From positions 1-38,505 of the forward strand of contig RBNJ01000161.1 of assembly GCA_003990765.1 (NCBI GenBank): a stretch of DNA of 38,505 nt. The letters are read 5' to 3'. Position 1 is the stretch's first letter, and the number at the start of each line of letters is the position of its first letter. Below the pieces are notes generated by a model, which worked only from the letters and a program-made list of their open reading frames with translations, ran no database searches and was not told the origin of the DNA. Shown here piece by piece: positions 1,812-38,037 of the stretch. The DNA comes from Jimgerdemannia flammicorona. Taxonomy: Eukaryota. A program made the translations under genes and the position numbers.

Positions 1812-2450
1812 GAGTTCGTCGCCCAGCCGGACCCGGACCCGGGCGCCTACTCTCTAACTACGGACTGCACGAACCAGAACTGTCTCGGACCTGGAGCTAA
1901 CTCTCTCACCACGGACAGCCCGGACCCAAACTTCTCCAGATCTGGACTGCATTGACCTGGATCAGGACAATGTGAATCGGAACCAGGACAATGCAAATCG
2001 GAACCAGGATCAGAACCTCAAATGTATTACTTTATTAGATTACTATATAATTACTAATATAAAATGTTCAGAATAATGCCGGAAGTACAGAAATAATGCT
2101 GGGACTGCATAAAACGCATATACATCAAAGGAATTGTATGTGTGAGTGTTTTTCAAGTGAAGTGCCGGATTTGCGAAGCAAGATTAGCCGTTGAAAGATC
2201 CATCAAGCTCATAATCTGAATCCACAAGGGTCAATGGCACGTCTGGAGCAACAATACTATGCTCCTCTTCATCCTCAGCTCCCTCCAACCCAATCATACT
2301 TGCATCCTTCTCAATGGTCAACAGGTCGATGTGCGCCTTCGTTTTCATGACCATACTGACCCACTTCATATACATTGGTTTGTGCATCTTCTCACTGAAG
2401 GTGGAGAGAGTTTGTTTGGGTGTCATGATAATCTCCAGCTAAAACATATG
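1795..2450 (-). mobile_element. Possible end of a hAT-like DNA transposon (C-terminal remnant plus subterminal repeats)
   Basis: The minus frame ending at 2184 reads LEIIMTPKQTLSTFSEKMHKPMYMKW followed by an acidic tail, loosely like the end of the hAT dimerisation domain. Short repeats (CCGGAC, AATCGGAACCAGGA x2) lie at 1827-2017, and CAGAGC at 1795 is a candidate terminus. No second terminus seen. Confidence 0.25.
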
Positions 2451-2487
2451 AATGAAATATGGATTAGCTCCTGGAAGCTGTTCCAAA

Positions 2488-2490
<3 letters not shown>

Positions 2491-2519
<29 letters not shown>
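2491..2519. repeat. (AT)n microsatellite
   Basis: Uninterrupted AT dinucleotide run. Confidence 0.95.
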
Positions 2520-2523
<4 letters not shown>

Positions 2524-2726
2524 TATAAGATGCTTACAAAAGTATAAACAACAATGAGGGTATTTAGCATGATGTATCTGTTAGAGTCAAGAACATTTGC
2601 AAATCAAGGGTTTTGCTTAAGGATCAAATAATAAAGTGAGTGTTGGATGCATTTGCCTGCAAAAGACTTAATGAGTTCTCCAGTAGTTGGGTTATATAAG
2701 TATAGAAATTTGTTTTTTTTTTTTTG

Positions 2727-3000
2727 CAAGATATTGAACCAATGCCCTTGATCTGACAGGTTGCATAGGCAGAGGTCTTGTAATTGTCTTCACTCTCTTC
2801 TCCAGAGTCTTCTTGAACATTATTGGCCTCAGTTATCTTCCAACCTTGGTCCTTGGCTGTCTTGATAAGTCTAAATCTTATTTGTTGTCTAAATGTGGAG
2901 ATTTCTACCAGTTGGCCAAAGGTTGCATTGACTTTTTGTTAGCTGAAATCCTTGAAGATATCATACTTGAAAAACTTGGTCTTACAAAGCTTCTTCTCTC

Positions 3001-3041
<41 letters not shown>

Positions 3042-5330
3042 GACTCAATATCTCATAGATTTTTATTAGAAGGGAACCAAAACCCTCCCCCATCACCCAT
3101 CAAGCACTGCCCCCCCATTAACCTAGGCTAGCTATTGTCCAGCAGCTTGACCATGCCAGATGCAGCAGGGCCTATATTGGCCTGTACCTCATTCTGTACA
3201 CCATGCTCTCCCTACCACCAGGGGGAACCCAGCCATATGCTAATGATCAAAAGTACATGCCCAAGACCCCAACATATGTACAAGGCCATACCTGAGTCAA
3301 ATAGAATAGCCCCTGCCACCTCAAGAAGAATGACAGGTAAAGAAAAACTCTCATCAAAGTATATTACAGTGGATAGGGCCTGGTTCTTTCAGTTGAGATA
3401 AATAAAGGACTTATATGTGAGGCAAGAGGAGACCCCCAATACCCCACTACTCAAGCCTGCAGGCCTTGATCACATTGTTATGTCAGCTCCCAGTTTCAGT
3501 TGAGTGCAGCCAAGACATCTGAAATGAGTAGCCTTGGACCCCCCAACCCCTCTCAATGACTGGGGCCCAACCTGCCAAATCACCAAAAGAAGCTGAGAGT
3601 GATACCTACCACCTAACTGCTCCACACCAATCAAAAGGCCCCACCAAAGCAGTACCCACCCCAGCCTCAATGACTGCCCCTAGCCTGGCACCCTACTGGT
3701 TCACCATAATCACCCTTTCTCCTATCTGTGATGGTCATCTCCCCTCCTATCCTGACATTATCTGAAAAACAGTCACCTATGCCAGAACTGTGCTCACCGA
3801 AAAGCTTGCCAAAGCCAGAGGGCCCCACAGGTACTGAGGACCTGTAGATAATCTATACTAAACACTTGATGCCCAAGGTTGGCCGACTCCCTACATAACC
3901 CATGATGTACCAAGACAACACCTTGTTGGCGATAGCAAAAGGAAGAAAGTGTTATACCAAAATAGATATACTCCAGATGTAGCTGAAGATACCAGAAACT
4001 GCAAAAAAGTGGAGAAGACACTAATTGGACACCAATAAAGAGGCAACTCATCACCATTGTCTTCCCCCTACTGCCCTGCAATAGATACAGCAAACCAACC
4101 TAAGGTAGAGGGAGTAATAATTGTGAAAAGTAGACTTAGAAGATTGCCTACCAAACTATTATAATCAGTAAGATAGTAGAGAAAGAGGCATTCTTCTCCC
4201 CCTCTCTCTTACTAGCTAGAGTAGTTCCTCAGATGATATCTTCAACTGCTTGCTCAAGCTTTATATCTTAGTCTATTTGTTTAGTATTGATTTCACTTTC
4301 TGTAATTACCTTTATTTTTTTTTCTACTGAATTCTTCTTGGTCCTTTCTGATGAGGCTTCTTGTGGACATCTTTCTTAGTGATCTTAGTAGAGTAGACTT
4401 TCTATTTTTCTTTATCAGACTTTTCAATTTCTTCAAAGATAATAGTATTGGTCTGTTCTTTATTTTAGGTAGCATTTCTTGACTGAACTTTGTACTTACT
4501 TTCACTCATACATTCATAAGAGTAGTGGTCTTCCTCTCTACAGCTATAGTAGATATCTCTCTTCTTATTTGAGATAGTAGTAAACTTCTAAACTAGACAA
4601 TGATCTCTTTCTCTAATTTTCCTTATCACATCTCCTAGATGGGCAGTTATTTCAGCAAACTTCTTAGTGAGTTCCTCTATAGAGTCACTGTTTTTCTATT
4701 ACTTAATAGTTCTTAGTTGAGATATATTTTGATTGATCATATAGCAGAGATCATACTAGTTATCATAGATGCTTTAATTCTAACTCTAGTGACTCTTTCT
4801 ATTATGTGGTCTTATAAATGTATAGCTATTTAGTATTATTAAACATAGATGATCTTCTGTAGTAGATTCAGAATTACTAATAATGAGCAGATAGCTATAG
4901 CTATCTCTGGATGGATTTCTTTCATAAAGATTACTTTAGCTATTTGGTCTTAGATAGCATCAGTATAATTAGTGAGAATTATCTAATATCAGATTCTAGT
5001 ATAGAATATATTTAGATCTTCACTTATTTCTTGACATATTATATTGAGCTGATCCTTTAAAGCTTACTTAATCTTATCTATATAGTATGTAGTTTAGAGC
5101 TAGGTCTTTTATGCTGCTAGCATAGTATCATTATCTGCTCTTATATAAGTTATAGTTATAATTACTACTCTTACTGAGTCTTGAAGACTAAAGAGTATGA
5201 GAGCTACTTACTATCTTGATATCAGAGTTCTTATAGTAGTATATTGCTCAAAATTATCAATGAAAGTAATGATTGATTTATCTGAAGTATATCTATAGAA
5301 TACTAGTACTATAGACTATTATGTTGCTAA
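2727..5330 (-). mobile_element. Degenerate Ty3/gypsy gag remnant (gypsy-D), interrupted at 3006-4190
   Basis: Minus strand gives gag-like LVFYRY..TFIDNFEQY, IFMKEIHPEIA and DSIEELTKKFAEITAHL, and a decayed CCHC knuckle IYYSCREEDHYSYEC (~4510-4555). Removing the insert rejoins the frame as TLASKREGEKKLCKTKFFKYDIFKDFS*QKVNATFGQLVEIS...TSAYATCQIKG, stopping before any protease active site. Confidence 0.8.
3006..4190 (-). mobile_element. 1.2-kb polyA-tailed retroposon with a 15-bp TSD (probably non-autonomous)
   Basis: T-run 3006-3037 with AATAAA shortly upstream on the minus strand. TSD TTCTTCTCTCCCTCT (2991-3005) / TTCTTCTCCCCCTCT (4191-4205). Excision restores the host gag frame. Confidence 0.85.
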
Positions 5331-5569
5331 TTGAAAAGATATTTTTTCCTATCTTTAGAGTATATAGTATATCTTAAAAAATATCAGTAGACTCTATAAT
5401 ATTCTCATAGAGATATATATTGATATTTTCTCTTCCTTGAGTATATATAATATTATTATTACTTATTTTGATTGATATCAGATACTCAAAGAACTCATAT
5501 ATAAAGAACTATTTTTAGTAAACTGTTATATATTATATAATATTTAAATCCATAAGCTATACATTATTA

Positions 5570-5808
5570 TTATTAGCTACATATCTCAACTCAGGTCTCT
5601 GTCTGTTTTCAAATTAGACAAAATGGATTAAGTATATTTAAGCTTTCAATACCAAGATTATCTATAAGCTAGATAAGATAAATATAATAGCTAATATCTT
5701 ATCAAGAAGACCTAATCTTAGTATCATCAAGATGACTCCAGATAAGACTCTTTTGGATAAACTAAAAGAAGGATACTACCAGGATCTAGTTACAAAAAAA
5801 ATCCTTAC
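5570..5808 (+). pseudogene. Ty3/gypsy pol fragment, RNase H C-terminus (gypsy-B)
   Basis: Reads TKWIKYI*AFNTKIIYKLDKINIIANILSRRPNL...LLDKLKEGYYQDLV, a decayed form of the ARWxExLxxFxxxIxYKPGKxNxxADxLSRRPD motif. Confidence 0.8.
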
Positions 5809-6189
5809 TAGTGCTCTCAATGAATTGAATCAAAGGTCCAATTCAATTAAATTTAAATCAAATCAAAGACTAATTCAATTCAAGGTCTCATTTGATTCCT
5901 ATTTTTTGAAATATAATAACTTGACTAATATATATCTAAATTCAATAATCTTTAGCTTATTAGATTCCTCTTATATAGAAGAATCTAACAAGTTAAAGAT
6001 CATTGAATTTGGATATATATTCATCAACTTATTATATTTCAAAAAATAGGATTCAAATCAGACTCTTAATTTAATTTGAATTTGATTCAATTTGAACTTG
6101 ATTTGAATTGAAAATTCCCCATTTAATTCAATTTGAATGACCCTTAATTTGATTTGATTTGAATTGATTCAATTTGTTTAAGAGCACTA
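5809..6189. mobile_element. MITE (381 bp) with terminal inverted repeats
   Basis: Left end TAGTGCTCTCAATGAATTGAATCAA; right end reverse-complements to TAGTGCTCTTAAACAAATTGAATCAA. Many ATTCAA/TTGAAT/TTTGA subterminal motifs. Flanks are CTTAC and CTTAA, so the TSD is ambiguous. Confidence 0.8.
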
Positions 6190-6365
6190 CTTAAGATATA
6201 AATATTACTATATTTAGTAACAGAATAATTCAGAAACTCTCTAAAATTTGTAAAAATATACTCCTACAACTAAGAGACTATATTATAAAGCAGACCTTTC
6301 ACATTGTATATCTTCTAAAATACAATCTTATTCTTAAAAAATTCTAACTTATATAAGAGAATCTC

Positions 6366-6367: not shown

Positions 6368-6414
<47 letters not shown>

Positions 6415-6469
6415 GTTATTTGGACTTCCACTTTTATTACCAATTACTATCCAATCTATATTATATTAA

Positions 6470-9400
6470 TATAAAGATACTAATATACCTTTTACCTAAT
6501 CCTATATGGACCCCTCATCTCTCCTCTCTTTCTTTCTCTTCTGAGAGTTACTAACCCCCCAGCAACCCCAACTCTCCCTCTGCTCTTCTTGTAAATATAT
6601 TTCACAAGTCTCCTATGGTTTCCTCCACCAGGTCTCCACCCCCACCACCACCCATTCAGGATGTCCAGTAATAATCACTCTTATTTTGTAACTCTTACTC
6701 CAACTGCTAATTGTTGACAATCCTCAAATATATAGAGCCAATATCTAGTAATTTCAACCCAAATAGCTAGAGCCTACTCCAAAGTCAACCACTTATTCCC
6801 AACTCCTCCCACTAACCTATGCTAAAGATCACTCCACCTCTCTCTCTTCCCTCTCCCCCTCTCCTCTCCCCAAAGTGCACAGCCCCAGTCAGTCCTCAAT
6901 AATCTGTCAGTAGTCTCTCAGAACCTCACACTCCCCAAGCCAATACTCAGAGATCTACACTATGCCCCCCATCTGCTCAACATTCAGACACTCCTCATAC
7001 TCCACAATATCCCCTTCTACTAAGTATCCTGACTAGTAGTTTAGCATTATGTTGTATCTTAAAATCCATCACCATATCACCTAGAACTTGGAGGGGAGCC
7101 ATCTTGCCACTTGCTTGTACCAAGACCAGACACTATTCCAGTTCCACTCTTTACCAATCCCCACCCCCTGCCATACTTCTGACCACAAATCCTTTCTATA
7201 CTCCCACAGATATTCCATACTATCTTCTAGCTGAAAATCCTCCACCAGTATGTCTCCTAATAGTAGGCAGTCTCATCTTTATATCTGTAGTCTTCATTTC
7301 TCCTCCCCCTTATCACCCCTCCACTAAAGACCAATGCAGTGGGCACCACCCACCACTCCTCACCAGAATTCTCTATAATATATCTTTCTACTCTCTTTGA
7401 GAGTCACTAGAGAGAACAGGTCACCAGTCATATTTTGAGGAGAGCACCATACTTCCCACACCCTCTGCATAAGGGGCACTCACTCTCAACCCCACAATTT
7501 GCTCACTCATCTCAGCCACCATACCCTCAAGTAGTGCAGATACTTGGTGAAGTCTACTAGACTAAGTCCATCTCTGTCTACTGGTAATATCAATACCTCC
7601 TAGCTGATCTGGCTTCTCTGCTCTGCCCAAATCTATGATCTGACAATCTTCAACAGTCTCTTGACTACTCACACTAGAAAGTCTAAGTGATATCTAATAT
7701 CTTATAGCTTCAGCAGCCAGTATACATTCAGTACCATCACTCTCTCTACCAGAGAGATATATTGACCTCTCTATCCTAAGAGTATATTCCCCCAAGCTAG
7801 CAGCTGCTGCTCCCACTAGTTACAAGGCAGCAGAGAACTATACATCAAAAAATAAATCCCTAAGTAGCAGACTGCCTCACTAGCTGGGACCACCATTCCA
7901 ATCACATCACCTTCAACTATTTCTCCACCTAGAGCCAGTATCTTGCACTTATGCCAATTGAGCCTAGTACCCAAACACCTCTCATACCATTCTACTGCAC
8001 TCCTCAGTGCTGCTACATCCTTCACTGAGCTCAGCTCTACTACTATATTGTCAGCAAAAAGCCCCAACCTTCCAAAATATTCAAACCCCCAACTCTATGC
8101 TGAATCCTATCCAGCAAAGGCTCTAATGAGAGGGCATAGAGAATCAGTAACAGTGGATCTCCTTGTGGCACTTCTCTGCCAAGGGGAAAGAACTCTCCCC
8201 TATGCTTATTTACTATAATAGCTGCCCAACTCTCCTCTAGCAGATAAATCAATAATCTTCTGAACCCTTGTGGGACTCTCATTCACTTCAACACCTCTAG
8301 CCATATATGCTGAACCCTGTCATACACCTTCTCTTGATCTAGAAAGACTAGTCAGTCATTAACTCCAGCTGTGCAAATAGTCTCAATAATACCATGGACC
8401 CATGCCATTCTATCTCAAATCAACCAACTACTGACAAAGCCCCTTTGCTCAGCCCCTAGCACTTGCTGAGCCACTCTTTGCAATCTGACCATTAAAATAT
8501 TTATCATTAATTTGCAATCTATATCCAGAAGCATGATCAGTCTCCAGTTCTTCCAATCCTCTCTTCTCCCCTTGTTCTTATATAACAGAGCTACAAGCTC
8601 CAGGCACTGTCTCCCAATCTAGAACTTGGAGCTGATGACCTCATTACACATCTATACCATCTCCTCTAACACAACCTCAATACCAGCTATCTTCTTTCAA
8701 AAATCTCAAGACAGCTCATCCTCTCCAGGGGCCATCTCCATACTTATTATTGCCAAGACCTGACATATCTCCTCTTTACTCACTGAGCCTTCAAGTTTGC
8801 CCAGGCCTACAGCTGGGTCTGGGTACCAATTCTCTAGCTGCCTTTCAATGTCTTGGACATTCTCTCTCCCCTCCTCCTCACTCTACAGCTGCCTCTAGTA
8901 AGACTAAAATAGGCCTAAGATCTCTGGTGTCCTAGTCATTATCTCTCCTGTCTCATCCAATACTCCTTTCCACCACTGCCTTATCCTCCTCACCTATAGC
9001 AGCCTTGAAAATAATTTAGTAGGCCACTTCTTCTCCTCCACACTCTACCACCTCAGCTGAGCCACCAGCCCTTTCACCTGCAGTTCTTTCTTCTGTCTAA
9101 ACAGCCTCTTCAGTTCTTCCACCTCTTGCTGGATCTGCTGAATCCTCCAATCTCCTACCCCATAGTTCTCCAATGATCCAGCTCATCTTCTCAGTAGGTT
9201 TGTCAGTCTCTGTGAAACCCACCTAACACACTGCCTCTGCTGGGCCCCCCTCCCTCTCTCTGCCTCACCTCAATACTACTGAGCATCAGATTTCAACTAC
9301 TGCTAATAGTCCCCAATCTCCAACCCCTGTACCCTCCAGTCAACTACCTTAGTGCTAATATCTACCACCCATTCTCTCCACAAGATACTATCTCCCAGTA

Positions 9401-10154
9401 ATGTGGTATTTAGACACCAATGTTCAGGCCCATCCCTACTACTTCCAAACCTCTCTCTGCCCAGCAACCCCCAGTGATCTGACTAAGGACACCAGACTGT
9501 CTCAATCTCACTCTAGATATCTGCACCCCAGTACTCTACTGTTAATATCCAGTCTATCTGAGATCTCAGTCCTACCACTCAGTAAGTATAGACCCTATGA
9601 TCTGCCCATCTAAGTCACTCAGAATCTACTAAAGAACTCATTCTCTCAATATTCTCCCAGTCCTCTATCCCACCACTCCTGTCTGCTATACTTCTCTCTC
9701 CATTGGTCCTATCTAACTCACTATTGTGTATTATATTAAAGTCACCCCCCAGACAGTTGATCTCTGCCTCTGTCAGAACACCTGCCTCCTGCAGACCCCA
9801 GACTCAATCCACTCACTCCTCTCTTTCTGCTAGATAATAGTATAATCCTATAGTTAGGGGACTCCAACCTGGCCTCCTCTATACTCCCTATACCAATTGG
9901 CTCCCCCAATGTCCAATATCTCCAATATCCTCCACCCTCTTTCTGACCAGAATGTCCACCCAACTCTGCCATACTGCTGTACTGCTCCATTCTCTTGTCC
10001 AGTCTAGTAAGTCTAAGTCCATATTATAACTTATGTCCTGTAATAAAAAAAGATCCACATCTAGCCCCTTTAACTAGCTAAAGATATTCTGTTATCTCAT
10101 TGCATCCCTCAGTCTATTGACATTTAAAGAGAAGATTCTAGTTATACTGTTTAT
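6470..10154 (-). pseudogene. L1-a ORF2 (APE endonuclease + reverse transcriptase), many stops
   Basis: IFSLNVNRL, FLLQD, GGDFN, GREVPQGDPLLLILY, LFADNIVV, GTRLNWHKC and YLGIYF motifs. End coordinate approximate. Confidence 0.88.
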
Positions 10155-10188
10155 ATTAAAAAATGTTTTTTGAGAGAAAGTGTCCACC

Positions 10189-12097
10189 CTACAGTTTGAT
10201 ACTCATCTCATCACCCACAAGATCTAAGTTTCTTTCTGCTGCAATCTTGTCTGCCTCCACCTACTGAGTATCCAGTGCTGCCAAGATCTTCTGACAGTCT
10301 ACTCCATCCACAGTCTCCATCTCCAACTAGTATTCCTCACACACTACCCACTACTTATCTAGCTCCTTTCTCAGTCTCCACATATAGGCTGTATGATTAT
10401 TCACAATCACTCTAAGTACTGCCTCTCTGTTATCATCCACTTGATAGGCCTTGGTCTCTAGCAGTACTACTATGATCTCATCATAGATTTTTCTTGGCAC
10501 CTCCTCACCATATAGAATTTTACCCCAGTATCTCTCACTTAGTACTCAAAAGTCCTCCCTCCCCAGTTCCTCTATCACTATATTTTTCAATATCTTCTAC
10601 AGCTACTTCTCTTTATTCACAGCCTCCTCAACTCTCTTAGCCATCTCCTTCACCCTCTCCTCTTGCTCTCTCTCAGTATTCCATCTCACTAACTCATTCC
10701 AATCCTCCTCCAGTACATTCTGTAGTTCCTCCTCTCCAGTAGCCCCACCTGGCACTCCATACTAAGGGTGCTCCCCCTCAATCATCTTTACATCTTCCAT
10801 GACTACACTTAACCCAGAGCCACCTCCTGCTCTCTGGAGCACCTCTGGAGTCACCCCCTTCTCCTTTGCTCAGGCACTTACTCATAAATCAGTATCTTCA
10901 GCTAAGGTCCCCCCTGATGTCCCTCCTTTCAACTTCACCAACAGCTCCTTCTGAATCTGCCTCCTCTGTGCCTACTCCCAGGCTGCTCAATTCAGCTGCA
11001 CTCTCTTACCATTGATAATCTCTACAACTGTCTTAGCCTCATACTTCTTCTAGGCCAATCTCCTCCTCTCCATAGCCTCAGCTAGGTCCTCTAATGTCTC
11101 TAGCAGGGCCTCTTCTTCTTCTAGCATCCCCTTTATCCACAAAACCTTACATTCTACAGAGCCCTACTTTAGGACTGTCAGCTAGTTCCTCACCTTTCCC
11201 ATATTCTTCTTATCCACTAGCTGCACCCTGACATCCATATCTCCAGTCCTGAACTCAGTGCTCTCTCAGACCCTAAACTCAATATCTATAATCTCCCAAT
11301 ACTTCTTGACTACCTCTACAATCAACCCTCTGGCTATTTTCTTTGATATAGTCAGCACATCTAGTACAATCAACTATACTACTCAGGGATTCCAGTGCAA
11401 GTACTATATCATAGAGATTGCTACCCCCCCCATCATCACTCTCTTCTCCATTGCCTCCAATAGCATCTCCTCCTACTTGAAGCCAACCTCCACTCCTTCC
11501 TATCTCTTCAAAAACTTTACTAAGGTAGCCCCCTTCACCTCCTGAGCCAGAAGCTCTAGAATTATTCTTACCATAACCACTAAGCCTCAGAAGCACAATA
11601 TGATGGCAAATTCAGACCCTGATTTCTTGAGTAATAGTGCTGCCACCAGTTCTATCACACCATCTACCAGATCTCCAGGCCTCATGCCCACCTCCTGTCT
11701 AGATCTACTATCAACTGTCACATCTAGATTTTTTCTAAATTAGCAGTTCCCTCTCCATCAGCAGTCTTACTCTTTCTAGCCACTACTTCCTCAGCTCTAT
11801 TGTTCTCACCTTCACAGGCTGCTCCCTCAGAACCTTCAGTTCTCTCTGCCTCCTTGCCCTTCCTCAGCCAGCCCTTCAGCTCAGTTGTTATTGTTGGTCA
11901 CCCTTTTTTCATCTTATCAGTAAAGCTCATCCTCCCAGACCCCTGTCCTCTAATACTACCATATCTCCTTCTATATCCTACTACTGGCAAGCCCCTCATG
12001 CTTTCCCCTAAGCCATGGCTCCTTCTCACATACTACCAGTCAAATGTACTGGGCCACCCTGCCCAGTATACACCTCAGAATGCTCAACAGTTACCAT
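10189..12097 (-). pseudogene. L1-a ORF1
   Basis: ATG at 12097 and stop at 10189-10191 lie at the same relative positions as in L1-b; colinear with L1-b ORF1. Confidence 0.8.
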
Positions 12098-12193
12098 GTT
12101 ATAGTGTCTTTTCTCTAAAAATAATATCTTGAGAGTTGCTTAAAGTTTGTATAATCTGAATATTACTGAAGAAAGAGTGCAAGAGAATCTCTA

Positions 12194-13861: not shown

Positions 13862-14610
13862 TATATATATATATATATTATAGTCACTTAGACTCTCTCA
13901 TATATTACCAAACTAATCTATACCTATATAATACAATAGTAAGACCTGACCCCTTACCCAATCCTTCCACAGAGCCTACTACTAACCTCTTCTCTATAGA
14001 AATCAACTATCTCCATAATTATCTGAATTCTTCTCCTACTCTTTACATAGATCTGCTCTATTAACTCTCAGTATAAATTACCTCTAAAGTCCCACTTAGC
14101 TCATTATCCATTCAAAAATTCTATTAATAACTACTCTTATCTTATCACTCTCACTCTCAGTGATGGCTAATGTCTAAAAAGACTGACTTATACTGCAAGA
14201 GTCCAACTTATAGAAAACTACTCATTACTAATCTCTTTTACTAGTTATAACTAAAGAATACCCCACTGCTCTCCATCTATATATGTATTCCATCTGATGG
14301 CCATATCTCCAGCCAGTTCTCAATAGCCAACCAGAAGTTCAACAGTATCTTATACTCCTCCAGTCAATGTTCTGAGATCTGTATCACCCTACTCTTTTGC
14401 CTAATATTGAAGCAATTCTATATTTGAATAATCTTCTATTTATCAAATAACCTGACCTAAAGTTCAGTATTATATTCTGTTATAAGAGTCACTACTATAT
14501 CATTCAGAACTTAGGTGAGAGCTACTAGCATCTTTCTTCAGTACTATTCAGGTTACACAACCTTTAGAAAGTACTTATAATATCATTCTTAGAGGAAAGA
14601 GACTAGTAAC

Positions 14611-16632: not shown

Positions 16633-16664
16633 AGGATGAACTTGATAATACACTATATTTCATT

Positions 16665-22014: not shown

Positions 22015-22424
22015 AGTATGTTTCTGTTCAAAACAGATATATATATAAGACTTTAGATTTCTGACACCTCTATCTATCTGTAAATTTTATAAAAATTATA
22101 TAATATATCTACAGCTGGCTATATAGAATTTAACAAGATATATCAACTTATTATCTGAGATTTCTACTGGTCCAAGATGACTGCTAATATTAAAAACTAT
22201 ATTATATCTTATAATATTTATCAAAAATATAAATTCAGCAATCAAGCTCTAGCTGGAACACTATAGTCACTACAAGTTTCCATCTGAAATTGAGACTATA
22301 TTGGAATAGATGTTATTATTCAGTTGCTAAAAACTAAGAAGGGAAGAGATGTGATCATTGTCTTTATTAATTGTCTCAGCAAGCAGACCTATTTCATTGT
22401 CTATATCTCAATAGTCTCTTCTAC
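22015..22424 (+). pseudogene. Gypsy-A integrase N-terminal part
   Basis: Decayed HHCC region AGYIEFNKIY...DFYWSKMTANIKNYIISY, then IGIDVIIQLLKTKKGRDVIIVFINCLSKQTYF; breaks off at ~22424. Confidence 0.85.
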
Positions 22425-22562
22425 AGTAAGAGCAGCAGCTGATGAGTAAATTGTATCTAATAGATACTATTATACTTCTATCTAAATATCTCTCTACTAT
22501 TAGTTAGTATGTTAATACTATATTAATATATAAGAACAAGTAGTCAGATTATCTATCTTATA
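22425..22562 (+). repeat. Candidate short 5' LTR of gypsy-C
   Basis: Starts AGTAAG exactly where the gypsy-A integrase stops and ends CTTATA, resembling a decayed TGTAAG...CTTACA. No second copy found in the window. Confidence 0.3.
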
Positions 22563-25500: not shown

Positions 25501-27870
25501 ATCCATTATTATATCAAATCTTCAAGATCAAGACCTTTTCTCTACTAGATTTATAAAATGATTACCACTAGATCTTCATTAATGAAAAGAATATTAAAAA
25601 GACACTTTCTGAATATGTTTTAGATACTACTAGTTCCAGATCATACCTTTTGGCTTAACTAATATACTAGCAATATTCCAATATCTAATGAATAATATCT
25701 TTAGATCACTGCTCAATATTTGTATTCTTATATATATTAATAATATACTAATCTACAGTAAAATAGTAGAACTATACTATACCACCTCAGATAGACACTG
25801 ACTCTATTGTAAGAATACTAACTCTATACTAAGATAAGTAAATACAAATTCTATTAAGACTAAATTAAATATCTAGGACATATCATCTCTGCTGAAAAAA
25901 TCAATATAAACTCTCAAAAGATATCTACTCTCTAGGATATTTCCATTCCCACTACTCTCAAGCTACTTTAGTACTTCCTGGGTATTGCAGAATACTACTG
26001 AAGATTTATTTAGAGATATTCTGCTATTATAGTCTCACTGATCAGTCTGATCTATAAAAGAGTAAACATTAAGACTAAATAGATTTCTGAGTATACCCAG
26101 ACTATAGATTACCTCAAGAGGCTCCTTACTGAGGCTCCTGTACTAATTGCATCTAATCCCACTAGACTATTTATCTTGACCATAGATGTTATTGATATTG
26201 TCATTGGAGCAGTACTTAGCCAAGATGATCATTTAGTAATCTATCTCTCTCAGAAGCTCAAGCTAGCTAAGACTCAGTATACTACTCATAAGAAGAAACT
26301 TCTAGCCATTATTACTGCACTCCAGAAATAATATCATTTTCTCCTAGGATAACTATTTACTATAGTCTATACTAATCACTATACCCTATAATATATTCAT
26401 ATATAGCCTATACTGACTCATAGACAAGCTTATTGAATGGAATTATTGCTCTCTTTGATATAAAAATTAAGTATATCCCAGGCAAAACCAACTGTGTTAC
26501 TGATGGCTTCTCCAGATATATAGAAGATGAACTTATCTTTATAGTCAAGATAATTAGTAATCTTACTTAGATTATCAAGGATGGCTATCAACAAGACAGT
26601 CTTCTGTTGAAATTCCTTCAACTTAGCTAAGACCCTGAGGCTAAAGTCTCAGAACTCATAGAAAGAATGGCCAAAAGATTTACTTACCATGATGGACTCA
26701 TCTATAAGGACTATGATAGAGTAGTAGTATCTAAAGATAATACTCTACAACTTAAGATAATATAGGAACTCTATAATACTTCTATAGCAGAATACTTTGA
26801 TTTCAAGAAAACCTATAATCTTTTAAGAAATTTCTACTGATCAAGAATAACTAAGGACATTAAAGCCTTTATAGCTTCATATAAAATGTGCCAAAGATTT
26901 AAGAGTATATAGTAATAAGCTACCAGTAGAACTTCTATAACTCCTGCTCATCTCTAGCTATAACTGAGACCAGATTACTATAGACTTCATTATCTAGCTC
27001 CTTAAGACTAAGACAGGATGAGATGTCATTATAGTATTTATAGACTGCCTGAATAAACAAGCCTATTTTGTATCTACTAAGACCACTACTACAGCCTCTG
27101 AGATTATCAAAATCTTTTTTAATTAAGTATTTAGACTATATAACATATCTAGTACTATTATATCTGACTAAGATACTAAGTTTATAAATAACTTCTGAAA
27201 GATATTCTTCTCTCTCTATGATATCAAACTGAAGTTCTCTACAGCTTACTACCTCTAGACAGATGGTCAGACTGAGTGTACTAACAGGACTCTCAAGCAG
27301 ATGCTCAGTATCTTTTATTATTATAAATAAAATAATTAGAACAAATACCTGGCCTATGCTGAGTTTGCCTACAATAATAGTTAGCAAATTTCTATAAAGA
27401 AGACCCCATTCTTCCTAAATTATGGTCAATACTCAAGGACCCCAAGTACAATAGTAAAATCAGCAGTTCCAGTAGTCCAGAACTTAGCTAAGACTATTTC
27501 AGATCTTATATGAATGATAAGAGATATTTTTATAGAAGCACAGAACTACTAGACTAAGTATACCAACTTAAAGTAAAGAAAAGTCTTCTATAATATTAGT
27601 AATATGGTCATGCTTAGAACAGATCATCTCTATCCAGATATCTTGGTATAGCAATTATCCAAGAAGTTCTATAAGAGAAGAATTAGACCATATAATATTG
27701 TGGAAAAGTCAGTAAAGTTAACTACAAGCTGCAACTCTCTCATAATATTTGAGTTCATCTAGTATTCCATATCAGTCAATTAATAGACTACTATATGAAC
27801 TCATTCTCTAAGTATAAGCATACAACCTCTAAGCCACCAAAATCATATATTATCCTCAGAATAAATCTAG
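22425..27870 (+). mobile_element. Near-complete degenerate Ty3/gypsy element (gypsy-C): gag-PR-RT-RH-INT
   Basis: Gag ELKALLLNKF (~23330); protease LLDNSTTRNYI (~24718); [12 protein letters not shown] (~25730); RNase H FILTIDVIDIVIGAVLSQ; integrase TAYYL*TDGQTECTNRTLKQML (27241-27306) and VFHISQL. Domain order is gypsy-type. Ends approximate. Confidence 0.9.
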
Positions 27871-28629
27871 AAATTATATGCAAGATTATGAAGCTGAGTC
27901 AAACCAAAGTCATAGAGTACAAAGCTAAGTTAACTTGAAGTCATGGAACATAATTTACACAAATAGAATCTTACCAATCAGGACTAAAAGTATATATACT
28001 GAAAATATAGATATATCAAAACAGAGAATTATAACAAACCAAACAAATAACTACAACTCTTAAATATATATATAAATATGATTACTGAGATCTACAACTG
28101 TATCTATGTTGACATTTAGAATATCATTGTCAACTAAGTCACACCTTGCCTGCCCCTTATAAATATCCATAGTCTGGTACCTCTCTATGTTATATAGGCT
28201 CAATGAAATGCTCTAAACATACTCAGTAAAGTCTATCAAATCAGACAAATCTCAAGCTACTATTAGATCAGCTATCTTCTAGAAGATATGGTTGAATACT
28301 GCCATAATACAGATATTATCTAAATGTCCCAACACTAGAAATTTATTACTCACAAATACTGAGAACTCTTTTATAAGTATAGTATCTTTATTTCCCACCT
28401 CTGAGTTACTACTGCTGTAATGGTTGCTACTCTATCTTATAGCTAAATTGATGATATGATATAAAAACTCAACCATAAGTATATTGAGTATGTTCAAACC
28501 ACAGACAGAATCTTCCTATATCTCAATGACCACATCCTGTAAATACCCCAAGTTGGATATACTATAAAGGATATTTTTTTTTTTTTTTTTTTTTTTTATA
28601 GTCACTTGGACTTCTTTATTACCCAAATC

Positions 28630-31600
28630 TCTAATACAACAATGACACCATTTGATAACTACTATATATCCAATATACAGAGCAGGGCCCATCAGTCCAC
28701 ACTTTCTCTCTACCATATCCCTCTATCATCTAGCACCAGGTACCTGCAACTCCTCTGTACAATGTCCTATATCTTTCTCATGGCTCCTAACTAGTGCCTC
28801 TTCCCCTAAAACCACTACCCTTATACTACTTCCAGAAGTAACCATCTCCACCACTCCACCAATTTACCAATTCCCATCCAGGAATCTCTCTCAAATACCT
28901 ATCTCCAGTACACCACCATTAGGACCCAGACACCAAAGATACAGCCCAAGCTCCCCCACATATCCCCAGTCTCTCCCACCAGTCACTACTTGATCACCAG
29001 ACCAGTGGGGCCCCCTGGTCACCTACCCTCATGACCCCAATATTCTTCCAATATCTGCCAATACCCTTCAACCCCTGGACATATTACCAATATATGTTCT
29101 GGTATCTATACTACACCACCATCTACCTCACAACACCACTCACATTCCCTTATACCTTCTATCACTATCCATCCTGTCCAGTACCCCAATATTATATTCC
29201 TCCTCAAGAATCTCCACTATACTACCCAAAACTTTGGTAGAACTACCTTGAGCAAGGAGTCCCCCCATTACCATATCTGACCCCACTTCCAATCTTCACC
29301 AAACCCAGCCTTCTGCCAACCAACTGGCCACCTCTCTAGTGGGCCTGTCCTGATCTATTCTATTGCTCCAGATAGAGAGTATTCTACCAACCAGTGATCA
29401 CCAATATGAAGGTTTCCTAGTCACCACTATTTCTGCTCCAGGTCTTTCTTGTCACCTGGCTCTGAACTATTAAGTCCCATTGTCAGCCAGGCCTCTATAA
29501 TACCCCACCAGAACCCCTTGTAACACAATCTGCTGATCCTTCCCACCTGAAGCAAACCCCATATATCCTTCCTTACCTTACCACAGAGACAGAACCTGAC
29601 CTCCCAATTGTCCATAGCCAGTCTGCCCCAACCCTCTACACCTAATTCTGTCAATTGACAACCCCACCAGCCTCAAAGCATCTTCAACTGTCTCCAAAAG
29701 TCCACTAGCCCCAGACTACCATTCAATGTCTGCATCACTACCATCTCCTAACTAATCTGTGGTCTTCTTCCTAACTATAGCCATCCTTTCACTATCTTCT
29801 TCAGATGCTATATCACCTAACCAGAGAAGTCCAAATGGTACTCTAGATATCACAGCTTAGGCAACCAGTATACATTCAGCACTACAACCCTTCTGACTAA
29901 GGAGAAGCCCCTCCCTGACCATCCTGTCAAGGTACTCTCCCACTTCTGTATCATACCATACCACCACTCCTTTGGCAGTACCATACTATATACTGAAAAC
30001 CAGATACCCAAGTATTGGACTACCTCTCCAGTACCAACTGTTTGTCCAAACTATCTATTCTCTCTAAGCCCAGCCCCAAGTTCTATGGTCTCACACTTGC
30101 CCCAATTCAATTTTGCCCCTGTCTGTCTCTCATATTGTCCAACCCCTTCTTGCAGACTTTTGACATTCTCTATACAGCCTAACCCAACTACTATATTATC
30201 TACAAAAGCCCCCAACTTCCAGACCATATCCCCCATCTGCAATTCAGTCAGCCTCCCCTTCAGCCAAGCCAATAAAGGCTCCAAGGATAAAATATATAAC
30301 AGGGGTGAAAGAGAATCCCCCTGTGGTACACCTCTCTCTAAGGCAAATCTGGGCCACACTACCCATTCATCAGTACTACTGCTCAACACCCTCACACCAG
30401 GCCCATCAAGTTTCGAGCCTCTACCATACTGAACCCTACTTTCTGTAGTACTGCCTCCAAGTAGTCCCACCTTACTCTATCATATGTCTTTTCTTAATTC
30501 AGAAAGACCATCTGCCCATCTATTTGTCGACTTCTACAGCCCTCTAAAATGTTTTGCACCCAGGCAGTACTGTCCCAAATCTGTCTCCCCTTAATGAAAC
30601 CTTACTGGTCCTCACCCACCAATTGGCCAATCCACCACTGTATCCTTCTTGCCAAAATTTTGGATACCAACTTTCTGTCCACATTCAGTAACATAATTGA
30701 CCACCAGTTTCTCCATACACATCAGTCTCCTTTCTCATTATATAACAGAGATACCAACTCTAAAGAACCATTACCAATCCAGCAACCTTCTCTCAATATG
30801 AAGTTTGCCATTTCAACTAGCCATTTATCAAACTCAGCCCAGAATTCCCTGCAGAACTCCTAAGGCAGTCCATCCTCCCCTAGCAATGAGCCAGCCTACA
30901 CATTTCTCAGCACCTCCAATACCTCTTCAAGGGCCACCATGCCCATCACTGCTCTATCTATCTCAGGCACCACTACCACTGGCCAGCTGTCAACTAAGTC
31001 ATCATTAACCCCCTGTAATACCTTGCTCTCTACTGGCCCTCCTTCATCCTGCCAGAGGGCATGCCATTGGTCAGATATCTCATCAAGCATATCAGTAATG
31101 TCAGTAACCTCAATTCTATCCTCCTGCAATACTGATGCCCAGCTGTGCCACACTCTCTTGGCTTTCAAGATTTCTGATAAATATTTAGTGGGCCACTCTC
31201 CTTCCTCCAAGTGCCTTGCCTACAATCTTGCCAACAGGCCATCTATCACCCTATCTTCAGCTGCCCTCAAATTCAATTTTAACTCAGCCACCTCCTTGGC
31301 CAACTGGCAGCATCACTCTCCTGATAATTTCTCTCCTTCCAATAGCCTCAGCCACTATTGGAGTCCCTGCTCCACTCTCCTCTCTCTATTCTTCTGCTCT
31401 CTCCCAGCTATCTCCCCAACATCATGCCAGTAAGTACCTGCCAAATGTTTAAATTTATCCCACCACTGCTCTATTGGCTGTCCACTGCTCTTTCACTACA
31501 ATACTTCCTGCCTCGCAATTGCCACAAACTGTTCTCACTCTGTCTGCCTTTTGAGTAGCCACATTAAGTCTCCAGTGACCTCCACCTCTGCCTGTTACCC

Positions 31601-32321
31601 AAAATTTCCCCTGCACCTCAACTCCCCAGTGGTCTGACCAAGGATACCACTGTACCTCTGCTGAATCCAGCACATTATCCCAACATTCTGTTACTAGAAT
31701 CCAATCAATCCTTGTTCCCACCAAGTTCTCACCAACTGAATACCACCTAGTAAAGAGCCCCAGTCTCTCTCCTTGATGTTGCCATACCCCATCAACTAAT
31801 CTCATATCCCACTCAACCTGAAGCTATTGCAAGAGTCTGGCTGACACAGCTACACCCACTCTACCATCAGATCTATCTAGTGTCCTGTCATACACTATAT
31901 TAAAATCTCTCCCCAGAATGTCCAGCCCAATCCCTTCTCAGCCTCCCCAAGCCAGCCAGTCCTCCACCTATTGGTTTCACTCTCTGCCAACTGCTGGTAA
32001 GTAAGCAGAGCCTACTATAAGCCCATTACCAGCTCCTCCTTTTAATCTTCTCCAAACCAATCAATCACCATAGACTGCAATCTCTACCAGCTCATCTCTC
32101 CCCAAACCAATCAAGATCCCCACCTGCTCATTCCACCCTACACTGCCATACCATTCTTTGCTCTATTCCAAATAATCCTACTCACCATAGGCTTGAATAT
32201 CTTGAAGAAATACCACATCATACCTCCTGACCTTTAGCCAATGAAATAGATGCCTCCACTTCACTCCATCATATAGACCATTGACATTTAGTAATAATAT
32301 ATGCAGATTGTTCATCATCAT
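28630..32321 (-). pseudogene. L1-e ORF2 (APE endonuclease + reverse transcriptase)
   Basis: MMMNNLHILLLNVNGL, VVFLQDIQ, GTRIDWIL, YPWSDHW, GHWRLN, RGVPQGDSLSPLLY, AFVDNIVV, GAKLNWGKC. End coordinate approximate. Confidence 0.88.
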
Positions 32322-32334
32322 TGAGAAGAATGTT

Positions 32335-34140
32335 TAAAGCTCCACCAGAATTACCACCACCTTTTCAGCTCAACCAAGGATTATTTCCTTTTATTCTTCA
32401 CAGATGGCTCTCTAGATATGGGCACCATTCATACCACTGCAGAAGATATCTACCCTCTCAGATGCTACTTTCCTGATATCAGCCATCTAGGCCTCATCTA
32501 CCTCATATCTTTCATCATCCAGAAGTGCTACCACCATTACTGTCACCAGTTTTGGCCCCTACAATACAATATTGAGAAATCCTTCCCAAGCCTCCTGAGA
32601 TCCATTGAATATGTCCACTTCCTTAATATCCTCCTCTACCAGCTCTTCAAGTACTGCCTGATACCAATTATCTGTAGTGATCACCAGAGGTCCAGGGGTG
32701 GTAGGCCTTGGGGTCCTACTCAGCTCCTATAGCATCTCTCTGTCTGCTGACACATCAGAGGTCATGTCTACCAGATCATCCTTCTCAGCATCCTTCTCCA
32801 GCCATACTACCTCACCTGTCTCTAGACATTCCCAATGAATATTTGCTGCTCCTGCCATGTGAACATCCTCTAACTGGGTCTCAGGTACTATCTCAACAAT
32901 ATCCTCAAAGCCCCCTTCACCTATCTCCTCCTTATCAGCCTACTTCTCCTTTACTGGTATATGAGCTGAGTTCTCCACACCTCCCAGTTGTAAAAAGGAC
33001 ACCTCAGTTGTCTCTATCTCCTCCATCTGACTCTTGGTCATTTCCACTCACACTTCCTTCTCTATTTTCACACCTTGGAGGACTGTTTGCAGGTGCTCTC
33101 AGTTTGTCTTCCACCACCTCTTTCTCCTCCTCTCTGTCAGAATCCAGATCCAGTCCTTGGCAAACTCCTCTCATCTCCTCTTATGCAGTTCCTTTGTGGC
33201 CTTTCTCTCCTCCAGAGCAAGTAGTAATTTCTCCTCCTCCTGTTCAGATCCTTTCCTTCTCCACACCTTGCACTCCTGCCCTCCAATATGAATCACCTCT
33301 GGCCAGTCTCTTTCTAGCCCTGTGGTCTCCTTGCCCTCCAGCCTCACTATGATCTCACAGTTGCCATTTCTCAGCTTAGTCCCCTCCCAGAACATAAATC
33401 CAAAGTCAACCATCTCACCAAAGCCTGCCAGTGTCTTTGCCACTATCTCCTTCATCTCCTGTCTCCCAAGAGTTAGCAGCCCTTCTACCATCAGATGTAC
33501 TATATGTAGATCTCACCTCAGATACCTCACTATTTCAATCTTGATGCTCTTGACTACCAACCCTTTCTCTAGGACCTTCACCATCTCCTTCTTCTCCACA
33601 AAGCCAATCTCCACTGCCTCTACTGACAGAATAAACTTCAAGAACTCTGTGCCTGCAATCTCCTCTCCCACTAGCCACAACACCTCTCTGGCAGACAAAC
33701 CCAGTCTCAGAAAATTCATTGAGATCACCCATATTGATACCGATTTGTAGAAAAAAGGACACACCACTAGTTCTCCAGAGCCAGCTACTATTATCACCTT
33801 CCTCTTACTTTCCAAGATACCAACAGTCACCCCACTAGCCCCAGGAAGCTCACCAGCAGTTTCACTCCCAGCCACTGGCCCAGCCACTGGCCCAGCCCCA
33901 GGAATACCAGTCTCAGCTATCCCACCTCCTGACCTCTGTCCCCTGGCAGTCACCTGACCTGCCATCTGACCAGTCACCTGACTCTCTCTCCTGTCAATAC
34001 TACATCTCCCCTGCCCTACTCCCATGGACCTAGCAGTAGCCCTCCTGTCCTCCATCACTATATGCCAGCCCTCAATACTAGCTGACCTCTGCTGACCACC
34101 TGTCCCCTCAGCAGCAGCACCAGTCCCTACCACTACCACA
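32335..34140 (-). pseudogene. L1-e ORF1
   Basis: MVEGLLTL...AGFGEMVDFGFMFWEGTKLRNGNCEIIVRLEGKETTGLERDWPEV is homologous to the L1-b ORF1 core. Both ends approximate. Confidence 0.75.
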
Positions 34141-34439
34141 AAACTCTTAAGGAGGCCCAGGCCAGATCTTCTTCTCTCTAAGCATCCAGAGCTTGATGAG
34201 TCTTAGGTTGCCATTTGATGAAAACCCAATGGATCCAGATGAACCTTACTGTGAATTGTTGCCAGACTTCTGCTATACCTAGTACACCAGTATAGATAAA
34301 GTGAAAACTTGAAAACATATTGCTTTTCACAAAAAGATGTATGTGTGGCTTAGCTCACTCTGAGTGGTTTGAGTAAAAGAAGTCACCATGAAGGATATCT
34401 ATAATATAATCTAGTTCAATAATGATGAAGCAGAAGATA

Positions 34440-37026
34440 ACTATATTATACCAACTTCAAGCAATACTTTTCAACATAACTCAGAGAAAAGGTACTAGTA
34501 AAATATCATTAAGTAAGAGTTTTGATAAGTATACTGAGTCAGATAGATCTGGGGCATTTAGCTGACAGTATGTAGAGAGAGATTATGACCTAAGGATAGG
34601 TGCTTTTAGAGGGACAAATGATGGAGAGAGCTCTGGAGAAACTAGTATTTGGTGGAAATGGGGGTAGATCTGAGTTTCCAAGCTTTATAGATAAGATGAA
34701 GGAGGGTAGATGGTCAGTTGGAACTAGGGCTGAAGTTGCTGAGAGAAAGAACAAGGCTAGTATAGGAAGAGAGAGGCCCTCAGTTTGGAGAAGTGAGTAT
34801 AGATACTGGAAGTACTGTGGCTGAGAGCAGAAGAGTGACTGCTGATAGCAGTGTGACAGTAGATCTAGAAAAAAAAAGAGATATGATGGCTGATGGAAGG
34901 ACTAAGCAGGGGATCCAAAAGAGGTAGGGGGATTTGGCTGATAGTATAACAGACCTGGCAGTGGCCCTATTACTTAAGAAGTCAATTTTAGAGTTTGCTG
35001 TCACTTTGTATTTTTGAGGGCTAGCTATGATAGTAAAGATAGTATTGGAGCTCATATTGAAGCAGATGGCAGGAGTAGTTTTAGTAAAGTTCCTGAGGGA
35101 TATGAAGAGGGTAGAGGTGGGCTTTGAGGAGGTAGGACCACTGGAGAAGGCATTGAAGGCTGGGCTGGCTATTGAAGAAGTGGCAGTACCTATGGCATAG
35201 TGCTTGAGATAGGACTCAAGAGTGGTCTAGCTCTTGGTAAAAGAGGTACTCATAGTAATGATAGTTGAGATGAGGTGTAGAGTTGAGGAGGTTATAGCAG
35301 AGTATAGAGAAGTAGTTGATATTGGATTCTAGATATAGGAAGAGACTACTTTTCAAACTGAGATATAGATATCAGGATTCAGCTGGCTGGGAGGGAGGCC
35401 ACTGGAAAGCCTTGGGACTAGCCTTCAGTAATGCTGTAGAGAGCCTTTATCTGTAAGATATCAAGGATGAAGGAGAGTGAGGAGGAGGAGGAGGACCTAC
35501 TGGAGGCCCTGGAAGAACTTGGTAGAGCTGTAGAATATAGAGCAAAGGTATGAAATACCTATGTAGATTTGATATATTTGGAGATAGTAGATGGAAAGTA
35601 TATCTGAGTAGACAAAGGATAATGGGAGAGAGCACAGAAAAGGAAGAAATAGAGAGAGCTATTGGTGAGTCTAAAGGAGAAGGCAGTCATGGGATTGGGT
35701 GAATTAGAGACTACTGAGGGGGCATAGACAAGTGTTTGGGCCAGTGGAGGAGGGGAGCAGAAGATGGCAGATGATCAAACAAGTAAGGTGACTAGGGATT
35801 AGGTGCTGTATGATGATAGCATTCTAGAGGTCTAGGAGGAGGAGAAGGTGAGCAGAGTGCAGGCTGCCATTGGGAGGATACAAGCTGGTGAGGATATAGA
35901 GATAAGAGATATACACAGGGTTCAGTTTGGAGTACCAGATGTAGAGATGGGGGGGTAGGTGATAGGAACTAAGGAAGATGAGTTGGTTAATGTCTCTGAG
36001 GAGGAGTGGGAAGAATATGCCAGTGCTGGTGTAGATACTTCAATACTGAGTGAGGGGAGACTAGATACTCCTGGAGATAAGGACATTGGGGACTTACAGT
36101 GGATGTGTCACATAATATATAACTTGGTGACAGAGGAATTAAGAGATATAGATCTGCAAGTTGTCAGTGAGAAGTATTGGGAGAGGGTACTCTATGGCAA
36201 TGGTGTGGTGGAGGCTCTTAAGGTCAAGGTATTGGCCATCTTTATAGAGGAGGAGGGATATGAGGTTGATAAAGCAAGAGAGAAAAAACTGGTAGTAATA
36301 GTAGGGGAACAGGTAGCTTTCTGGTGAGAGCAGAGGCAGGGACTTCAACTTTGGCAGAGAGTATACCAGGAGTATCAGGACATGATAGAGGAGAAGAAGA
36401 ATGTAGAATTGGCTGATCTTCTGACTGGATTTGAGGCTAAAAGGATGAAGAATGTGGAGATTACTGTAGAGCATAAATTTGACCTAGTAAGAGAGGAGAT
36501 GAGTGTAGAGTTGTAAAAGGAACATTCTTCTTTTAACATTATTTCCAATAAACAGTAAAACCAAAATCTTTTCTTTGAATGTAAATAGGCTATAGGGCTC
36601 TGGCAGATGGCATAATATTTTCACTTAGCTTAAGAGATTGGAGACTGATCTCTTTCTGTTGCAAGATATACAATATGAGGATGATGTAGATTAAGTGGAG
36701 TGGATAAGAGAATGGGGGGGTACTGCAGTGTGGAAGGGCAAGATGGCAATTCTGATGAGAAATGATAGAGGAGAAATAGGTGGAGTTAGGAGTTGGGGTG
36801 ACCAGTTGGTGTGGGGGGAATGGATTCAGCTGAGCTGGGTACTAGTGGTGATTGGTTCTTGCTACTATCTAGCTATCAGGGGTGAGCATATGCATAAATT
36901 AATAGACTATTGGAAAGGGGCATTCTTGTAGAGGATGGGGTTGATATTCTGACAGAGAACTTCAATATAATCAGAAATCTTCAGTTGGACAGGACTGATA
37001 GAGAAAGGAGTGCTAGAGGAAGGAGC
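34440..37026 (+). mobile_element. LINE 5' half (L1-f): ORF1 ~34503-36516 and start of ORF2 from ~36548, cut inside the endonuclease
   Basis: Colinear with L1-b from near its 5' end to ~17140; KIFSLNVNRL, DLFLLQDIQ and a decayed GDFN motif (ENFN); homology stops at the tandem array. Confidence 0.88.
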
Positions 37027-38028: not shown

Positions 38029-38037
38029 GAGGCACTA

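Follow-up and report, generated by a model that had tools for sequence, protein, structure and literature searches.

Layout of the locus

The window analysed here is a stretch of 38,505 nt from contig RBNJ01000161.1, and all coordinates are positions in it on the forward strand. It holds a nest of retrotransposon remains, in which five copies (A-E) of one L1/Tx1-like long interspersed nuclear element (LINE) family, with a mutual identity of 62-73%, sit inside AT-rich blocks (GC 25-31%) with Ty3/Gypsy reverse transcriptase (RT), RNase H and integrase remains. Nearly every CpG has disappeared from this domain, and the changes acquired after insertion are almost purely G:C>A:T transitions. Probably it is an old nested retrotransposon cluster in cytosine-methylated silent chromatin, decaying by CpG deamination plus a slower, context-independent C>T change. 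An earlier note on this DNA had described 2342-37025 as a sharply bounded domain of hypermutation resembling repeat-induced point mutation (RIP) and not limited to CpG. The features are, with CpG contents also given as observed/expected ratio (o/e):

1 to 2341, no strand: CpG-normal flank with 112 CpG (o/e 0.99) and 42-47% GC, without recognisable gene or transposon
2342 to 3004, no strand: first CpG-free stretch, unclassified, 0 CpG in 663 bp; left domain boundary at 2340/2342
3005 to 4190, minus strand: poly(A)-tailed retroposon fragment (T33 on the plus strand); target site duplication (TSD) 2991-3004/4191-4204, 14 bp with one T/C mismatch; 3 of the 15 CpG of the domain
4205 to 6351, plus strand: Gypsy remnant (AT-rich block AT1), GC 26%, CpG 0; tblastn match to residues 1224-1293 of Gypsy polyprotein P0023 at 5624-5830
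6368 to 12177, minus strand: LINE copy A with open reading frames ORF1 and ORF2 (endonuclease, RT); tblastn to ORF1/ORF2 of the relative L001; RVT_1 fragment; T44 tail
12194 to 14511, plus strand: Gypsy RT and RNase H remnant (AT2); P0023 residues 837-1221 at 12514-13631 (tblastn); RT_RNaseH_2 match
14527 to 20396, plus strand: LINE copy B, the least decayed copy; RVT_1 E 1.2e-16; 7 of the 15 CpG
20589 to 21959, minus strand: LINE copy C, a 3' fragment with T31 tail, sharing 70% identity with the 3' part of B (1377 columns)
21977 to 28560, plus strand: AT3; integrase fragment at 22060-22383, Gypsy interior near-complete at 23992-27857 (tblastn to P0023)
28575 to 34384, minus strand: LINE copy D, the most diverged copy, T24 tail; tblastn; RVT_1 E 1.3e-8
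34835 to 37026, plus strand: LINE copy E, 5' part only, with ORF1 and ORF2 residues 4-170 (tblastn); CpG 0; cut off by the minisatellite
37027 to 38028, no strand: 9-bp minisatellite (TRF), ~110 units with a higher-order period of ~219 bp; 62 CpG
38029 to 38331, plus strand: 3' end of a poly(A)-tailed element, CpG-poor, with AATAAA and A29 read directly

In a search allowing any mismatch type, TSDs of 14-17 bp were found for A, B, C, D and the 3005-4190 fragment. The mismatches inside these five pairs are all transitions: two in A (6352-6367/12178-12193), two in B (14512-14526/20397-20411), three in C (20572-20588/21960-21976) and two in D (28561-28574/34385-34398), besides the one of the fragment. 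The TSDs in the nest fix the order of events: Gypsy elements came first, the LINEs later. Copies A and B stand head to head (11908-12176 and 14531-14801), their 5' ends 2.3 kb apart across the Gypsy RT/RNase H remnant; since each has its own TSD, the same small target was hit twice, by independent insertions. For copy E, 70% identical to B 14941-15763, no TSD was found. In blastn (E<=0.01) the poly(A)-tailed end at 38029-38331 matched nothing else in the window; possibly it is the 3' end of copy E. Of the 194 stop-to-stop ORFs of at least 60 aa, 181 were scanned against Pfam; the 13 omitted lie in a TTTTC repeat (2) and in the minisatellite (11). Rfam and tRNA scans of the window found nothing.

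A protein search with the RT of copy B led to a relative, P0001, with 75% identity, and a metagenome scan with P0001 gave a single locus, L001, in which ORF1 is intact (712 aa) and ORF2 (776 aa, with endonuclease and RT) stays open up to the end of the contig. The family belongs to the L1/Tx1 group by the Exo_endo_phos and RVT_1 domains of L001, which is collinear with A, B, D and E, by the T24-T44 tails and by the 14-17 bp TSDs. Besides metagenome relatives, protein searches gave only L1-like proteins of fish and plants, which are the nearest named LINE proteins at 21-36% identity. L001 itself is too diverged for a direct ancestor (50-59% nucleotide identity to the window copies). The copies decayed by substitution and not by insertions or deletions: up to 768 codons align in one frame, and in copy B the ORF2 residues 9-776 lie in one frame at 16659-18956 with 56.6% identity to L001 (tblastn).

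The LINE blocks have a GC skew of ±0.45-0.5, the sense strand containing 31-35% G and 10.5-12.8% C (in copy A 32.6% and 11.7%, with CpG 0). We considered this skew as a signature of strand-specific editing and rejected it, as the intact relative has the same skew: the sense strand of L001 (4546 bp) has 39.2% G and 14.7% C, with 130 CpG (o/e 0.37-0.72). The strong skew is thus native to the family and not mutational, a point that had been missed before; a skew of ±0.5 may elsewhere be mistaken for editing, and caution is advised. The family proteins are rich in Trp, Gly, Arg and Val and accompanied by long open antisense frames, a result of the native G-rich and C-poor sense strand.

Loss of CpG and its boundary

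Exactly 15 CpG are present in 2342-37025, where 1171.3 are predicted from the local C and G content (o/e 0.013); a count by eye had already given about 15 in ~34.7 kb. Shuffling within 500 bp (n=200) never yielded less than 1107 CpG for this region. The control dinucleotide GpC occurs 1102 times, a normal level, therefore the deficit is specific to CpG. In a scan per kilobase the CpG o/e was 1.04 in the first two kilobases, then 0.00-0.06 across 3001-37000. CpG in the flank are spaced by 20.7 bp on average, with a largest gap of 90 bp; at the left boundary the last one lies at 2340 and the next at 3798. Hence, the left step takes less than ~100 bp: before it there is one CpG per 21 bp, behind it a run of 1458 bp has none. 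On this side the domain has a sharp limit, as the earlier note had stated, but the right "edge" at 37025 is merely the start of the 9-bp minisatellite. Beyond the array, 38029-38505 (477 bp) is again CpG-poor with 2 CpG (o/e 0.12), therefore the right end of the domain is not inside the window.

For its ORFs of at least 60 aa, the flank matched no Pfam family at E<=0.01, and relaxing the limit to E<=5 added nothing convincing. Its tandem repeats, taken as a unique-DNA control, differ by 5 transitions and 4 transversions and by 2 and 0, a sample too small to use. One of the tandem pairs (1963-2004, 21 bp) differs solely by TG versus CA, both products of one former CpG. On the other side of the boundary, the CpG-free stretch 2342-3004 matched no Pfam family in the three plus frames read through stops, and had no repeat partner elsewhere in the window except poly-T and (AT)n. 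Two protein-like open frames on the minus strand (84 and 104 aa; 2184-2938), with an (AT)n-containing gap between them, span the boundary; they have no Pfam match and may be either the end of a host gene or an element not yet recognised.

The boundary bears on the question whether the domain was targeted at all. Very old elements could have decayed because the whole genome is biased towards G:C>A:T and its CpG are hypermutable; the flank would then be functional, or selection or biased gene conversion would keep its GC high. Spontaneous spectra biased towards G:C>A:T are common in eukaryotes, the copies are old as judged from their 62-73% pairwise identity, and the TG/CA difference in the flanking tandem pair indicates that CpG transitions occur there, too. 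The flank, however, retains a CpG o/e of 0.99 over 2.3 kb, tandem repeats included, without recognisable coding sequence, and the CpG content drops over a distance below 100 bp. It is unlikely that selection would maintain each CpG in 2.3 kb of non-coding flank, and we consider an untargeted decay to be quite improbable.

Changes acquired after insertion

Counted as private were changes at positions where one copy deviates from a base shared by three or more of the other sequences (L001 among them); the count involved no reconstructed sequence. In four copies, C>T occurred at 74 of 306 sites (0.242) and G>A at 339 of 1671 (0.203), compared with 100 of 1043 for A>G (0.096) and 45 of 1306 for T>C (0.034). 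The total was 558 transitions and 380 transversions. A split by codon position in the copies A, B and E separates changes before from changes after insertion; copy D was left out of the codon-position and the headline context figures due to its poor alignment. Non-CpG G:C>A:T transitions per G/C site amounted to 0.174, 0.215 and 0.219 at codon positions 1, 2 and 3, thus this class is blind to codon position and arose after insertion. The other classes fell mostly on third positions and are largely older than the insertions: A:T>G:C transitions per A/T site were 0.039, 0.029 and 0.201, transversions per site 0.051, 0.039 and 0.13. At the G/C sites of codon position 2, 82 transitions stood against 17 transversions. 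The change after insertion is near-purely G:C>A:T transitions, and with 0.17-0.22 per G/C site outside CpG at all codon positions, the decay is not limited to CpG, as had been claimed.

The same direction is visible in TSDs, stop codons and protein motifs. Six TSD pairs with nine mismatches had been reported; we obtained five pairs with ten internal mismatches, and the observation that all are C/T or G/A remained valid. Positions with Trp, Arg or Gln in the intact relative make up 15% of the aligned residues, yet 88 of the 125 in-frame stops in the LINEs fall on them, 44 of the 125 being TGG>TAG or TGG>TGA. In the Gypsy remains, 37 of 75 stops are at such positions. The decayed RT motifs YLDN and YINN, which the earlier note had derived from YLDD and YIDD along with the stops at Trp, Gln and Arg, were located at 12940-12951 and 25733-25744; FADN is found at 8047-8058 on the minus strand, and an intact FADD at 18774-18785.

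A technical artefact, either a bisulfite-converted or a miscalled assembly, was rejected because C>T and G>A are both found on the same strand. Bisulfite conversion would spare methylated CpG instead of removing it, CpG persist in both flank and minisatellite of the same molecule, and TSDs and poly(A) tails are intact. An origin of the pattern in the assembly is thus hardly conceivable.

Sequence context of the transitions

The LINE blocks (21.6 kb) contain 12 CpG. At the 394 copy-sites with CG in L001, the window copies show AG 74, CA 63, TG 62 and TA 44 times, and CG is not among the six commonest dinucleotides; control dinucleotides were retained at 20-42% in the same comparison. TG and CA are equally frequent products, as symmetric CpG methylation would give, and their o/e in the LINE blocks is 1.0-1.48. 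If the ancestors resembled L001, CpG would have been lost at least 17 times faster than other sites (at least 98% of CpG versus ~20% of other G/C); the factor is a lower bound because just one of the six mappable residual CpG in copy B coincides with a CpG of L001.

Outside CpG, the rate of change hardly depended on the neighbours. By 3' neighbour it was 36 of 190 sites before A (0.189), 43 of 215 before C (0.200) and 45 of 186 before T (0.242); by 5' neighbour, 22 of 92 after A, 56 of 214 after C, 11 of 72 after G and 41 of 255 after T. Changed were 6 of 41 CHG and 47 of 243 CHH sites. Sense C and sense G change alike (48 of 201 and 231 of 1226), so both strands are affected. There is no preference for CpA as in the Neurospora type of RIP, for CHG as in the plant CMT type or for TpC as in the APOBEC type; CpG is the only preferred context. 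Clustering of C>T versus G>A along the strand was not detected in a runs test of four copies (permutation P 0.06-0.94), a test that the scarcity of C on the sense strand leaves with low power.

These data have to be compared with a RIP-like hypermutation triggered by repeats, in which a premeiotic enzyme of the RID/Masc1/Dnmt1 type would act with a very strong bias towards CpG and more weakly elsewhere. The almost pure G:C>A:T change after insertion and the sharp boundary are in line with such an enzyme, and CpG-directed patterns have been published (excerpts of PMC3318451, PMC4352252 and PMC4165359). Given the measured non-CpG decay, a rate ratio of ~8-15 would also seem to leave more CpG than are present. 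That non-CpG sites show no dinucleotide or trinucleotide preference argues against such an enzyme, as does, within the low power of the runs test, the lack of strand-coherent clusters. The classical RIP indices, which the earlier note had proposed as a check, gave a divided answer: the AT-rich blocks pass (TpA/ApT 1.06-1.2; (CpA+TpG)/(ApC+GpT) 0.81-1.09), whereas the LINE blocks fail with an index of 1.2-1.8. Furthermore, the minisatellite, tandemly repeated DNA itself, retains 62 CpG, and with copies of only 62-73% identity any homology trigger would be long past. Taken together, a RIP-like process is rather unlikely, though it deserves consideration. Regarding the earlier interpretation, the part on decay beyond CpG is supported; the RIP character is not, in view of a non-CpG rate that is flat over 3' neighbours, CHG/CHH and strands, and of the failing LINE blocks.

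The older Gypsy layer

The decay has proceeded further in the Gypsy remains. They contain 75 stops in 1585 aligned codons, the LINEs 125 in 4512, and the ratio of replacements of the G:C>A:T type to their reverses is 387:45 in Gypsy and 807:262 in the LINEs. Examples from Gypsy are D>N (32:3), P>L (24:1), H>Y (20:1) and T>I (29:1). In the Gypsy blocks the dinucleotide o/e is 0 for CpG, ~0.8 for CpA/TpG, 1.04-1.19 for TpA and 1.5-1.75 for CpT/ApG. This pattern follows from context-free C>T after the loss of CpG and no special target is needed. The measured rates would imply an equilibrium GC of ~17-25%, which the oldest blocks with their 25-31% appear to approach; it may also be that this Gypsy family was AT-rich from the start.

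With stops read as X, the interior at 23992-27857 has the order dUTPase, protease, RT, RNase H, integrase and SH3. The dUTPase (23992-24400, E 1e-14) lies upstream of the protease, RVP_2 was matched with E 2.4e-8 and RT_RNaseH_2 with E 3.6e-19. A Chromo match was not obtained for this interior, and SH3_Tf2-1 stayed below threshold (23.9 bits versus a cut-off of 30). No pair of long terminal repeats (LTRs) was found in the window for the Gypsy remains; a candidate pair, 22088-22533/26761-27191, turned out to be integrase fragments, each from a different copy, with 65 transitions and 96 transversions between them. The part 4205-5650 of AT1 could not be classified. AT1 further contains a palindrome of 272 bp (5839-6110) with arms that are ~83% complementary and a 5-nt spacer.

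The minisatellite

The array occupies the place of LINE copy E beyond ORF2 residue 170. At its CpG position the units read ACGGG (33), ATGGG (41) or ACAGG (12), thus TG variants outnumber CA variants. Between adjacent 219-bp blocks, 711 aligned ungapped positions contain 35 transitions at CpG, 25 at other sites and 22 transversions, a divergence that shows the array not to be young. A collagen-like coding function (Collagen, E 1.3e-4, below the cut-off) was rejected since 10% indels break all frames.

Origin of the decay

In the explanation that we regard as probable, Ty3/Gypsy elements would have inserted first, followed by five insertions of one L1/Tx1-like LINE family, and the cluster would have remained silent chromatin with methylated cytosines. 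Essentially every CpG would then have been erased as its 5-methylcytosine deaminated, while a slower, context-free C>T flux changed perhaps ~20% of the G/C left in the LINEs and about double that share in the Gypsy layer, which it would have driven to 25-31% GC. The CpG o/e of 0.013 versus 0.99 in the flank and the symmetrical products, TG 62 and CA 63, are the marks of methylation decay, from which we infer both methylation as the cause and its aim at transposons. The flux outside CpG may be due to methylation of non-CpG sites, or to plain cytosine that deaminates in silent chromatin and escapes repair.

Several observations do not fit this explanation easily. CpG-only methylation alone does not explain the non-CpG excess. 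The equilibrium GC of ~17-25% contrasts with a flank of 44% GC with full CpG, and the non-CpG flux therefore looks specific to the domain, which a directed mutator would explain equally well. The minisatellite keeps 62 CpG, and its ratio of CpG to non-CpG transitions, by a rough estimate only ~8, is weaker than in the retrotransposons; this retention needs an extra assumption, with partial escape from methylation (hypomethylation) and recent homogenisation of the array as candidates. For the 663 CpG-free bp at the left edge, an origin from transposons could not be demonstrated. Against a purely transitional spectrum stand the 13 transitions and 9 transversions between the two palindrome arms (5839-6110).

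A cytosine mutator restricted to the domain, acting in every context and at least 17 times harder on CpG, would be a RIP-like defence without dinucleotide signature in a lineage without prior description; we hold this to be unlikely. With named LINE relatives of no more than 21-36% identity, the host may belong to a poorly sampled group. If such a mutator existed, the CpG-rich minisatellite would mark DNA that the system spares. In a fungus with CpG-only methylation, by contrast, the domain would represent a clean, unusually complete example of a known process and little more. The split by codon position is of use, as it isolates a near-pure, context-free G:C>A:T flux of ~0.2 per site beside a total CpG loss. 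The step of less than 100 bp and the CpG-retaining minisatellite provide natural internal controls for methylome work.

Comparison with known systems

The published systems are compared here on the basis of excerpts of the cited papers. The window LINEs share with the L1/Tx1 group the APE endonuclease and RT in ORF2, the poly(A) tails and the TSDs of 14-17 bp, but differ by the low identity (21-36%) to named proteins and by an intact relative with natively 39% G and 15% C. In retrotransposons a dUTPase is described as rare (PMC2864245, PMC5408684). Gypsy elements with dUTPase are reported from Postia, Phanerochaete and Tuber, one Postia placenta family having an N-terminal dUTPase in Pol (PMC2864245), like the window element with its dUTPase upstream of the protease. 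The elements of bdelloid rotifers have another domain order, with the dUTPase between protease and RT (PMC5408684). This Gypsy element is the one taxonomic clue that the analysis gave, and it makes a fungal host likely; the early-diverging fungi of which the earlier note was reminded received no support from it or from the other data.

Canonical RIP, as known from Neurospora and the Pezizomycotina, is RID-dependent and prefers CpA, according to excerpts of PMC4165359 and PMC4014442. It acts only on duplicated DNA in the sexual phase, and its processive events leave strand-coherent runs of C>T or G>A. The domain shares with it the dominance of G:C>A:T, the nonsense codons from Trp, Gln and Arg and the AT-rich relics, of which the AT-rich blocks pass the indices. 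The domain lacks, however, a preference for CpA or any other non-CpG dinucleotide, CpG is overwhelmingly preferred, and the LINE blocks fail the indices. The decay of the domain is not canonical RIP. CpG-directed relatives of RIP come closer: hypermutation at TpCpG is reported for Pucciniomycotina (PMC3318451), dinucleotide and CpG signatures of several fungi have been linked to Dnmt1 subfamilies (PMC4352252), and Uncinocarpus reesii is "predicted to be RIP'd at CG" (PMC4165359). In these accounts, as in the domain, the decay strikes CpG foremost and keeps to repeated elements, but the domain differs by its clear non-CpG component; a TpCpG preference is unreadable here because all CpG are gone whatever the 5' base. 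In Ascobolus and Tuber, methylation induced premeiotically (MIP) and reversible transposon methylation are accompanied by secondary spontaneous deamination; C>T single-nucleotide polymorphisms are enriched in highly methylated transposons, and the excerpted part of PMC4165359 gives no significant CG>TG enrichment score for Tuber repeats. The complete depletion of CpG sets the domain apart from Tuber.

Age-linked loss of CpG and GC, as in the domain, is described for the rust Austropuccinia psidii, in which CpG depletion and AT-enrichment rise with transposon age and classical RIP indices are not diagnostic (PMC8063080). There the transposons are mostly Gypsy, large transposon nests separate the genes, and the cause is attributed to 5-methylcytosine deamination with imperfect repair, in the excerpts of this study. 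The domain differs from this rust in its near-total CpG loss (o/e 0.013) and in a measured context-free non-CpG component of C>T, for which those excerpts give no figures. The phenomenon belongs to a known kind, a pattern on record for methylated fungal transposons.

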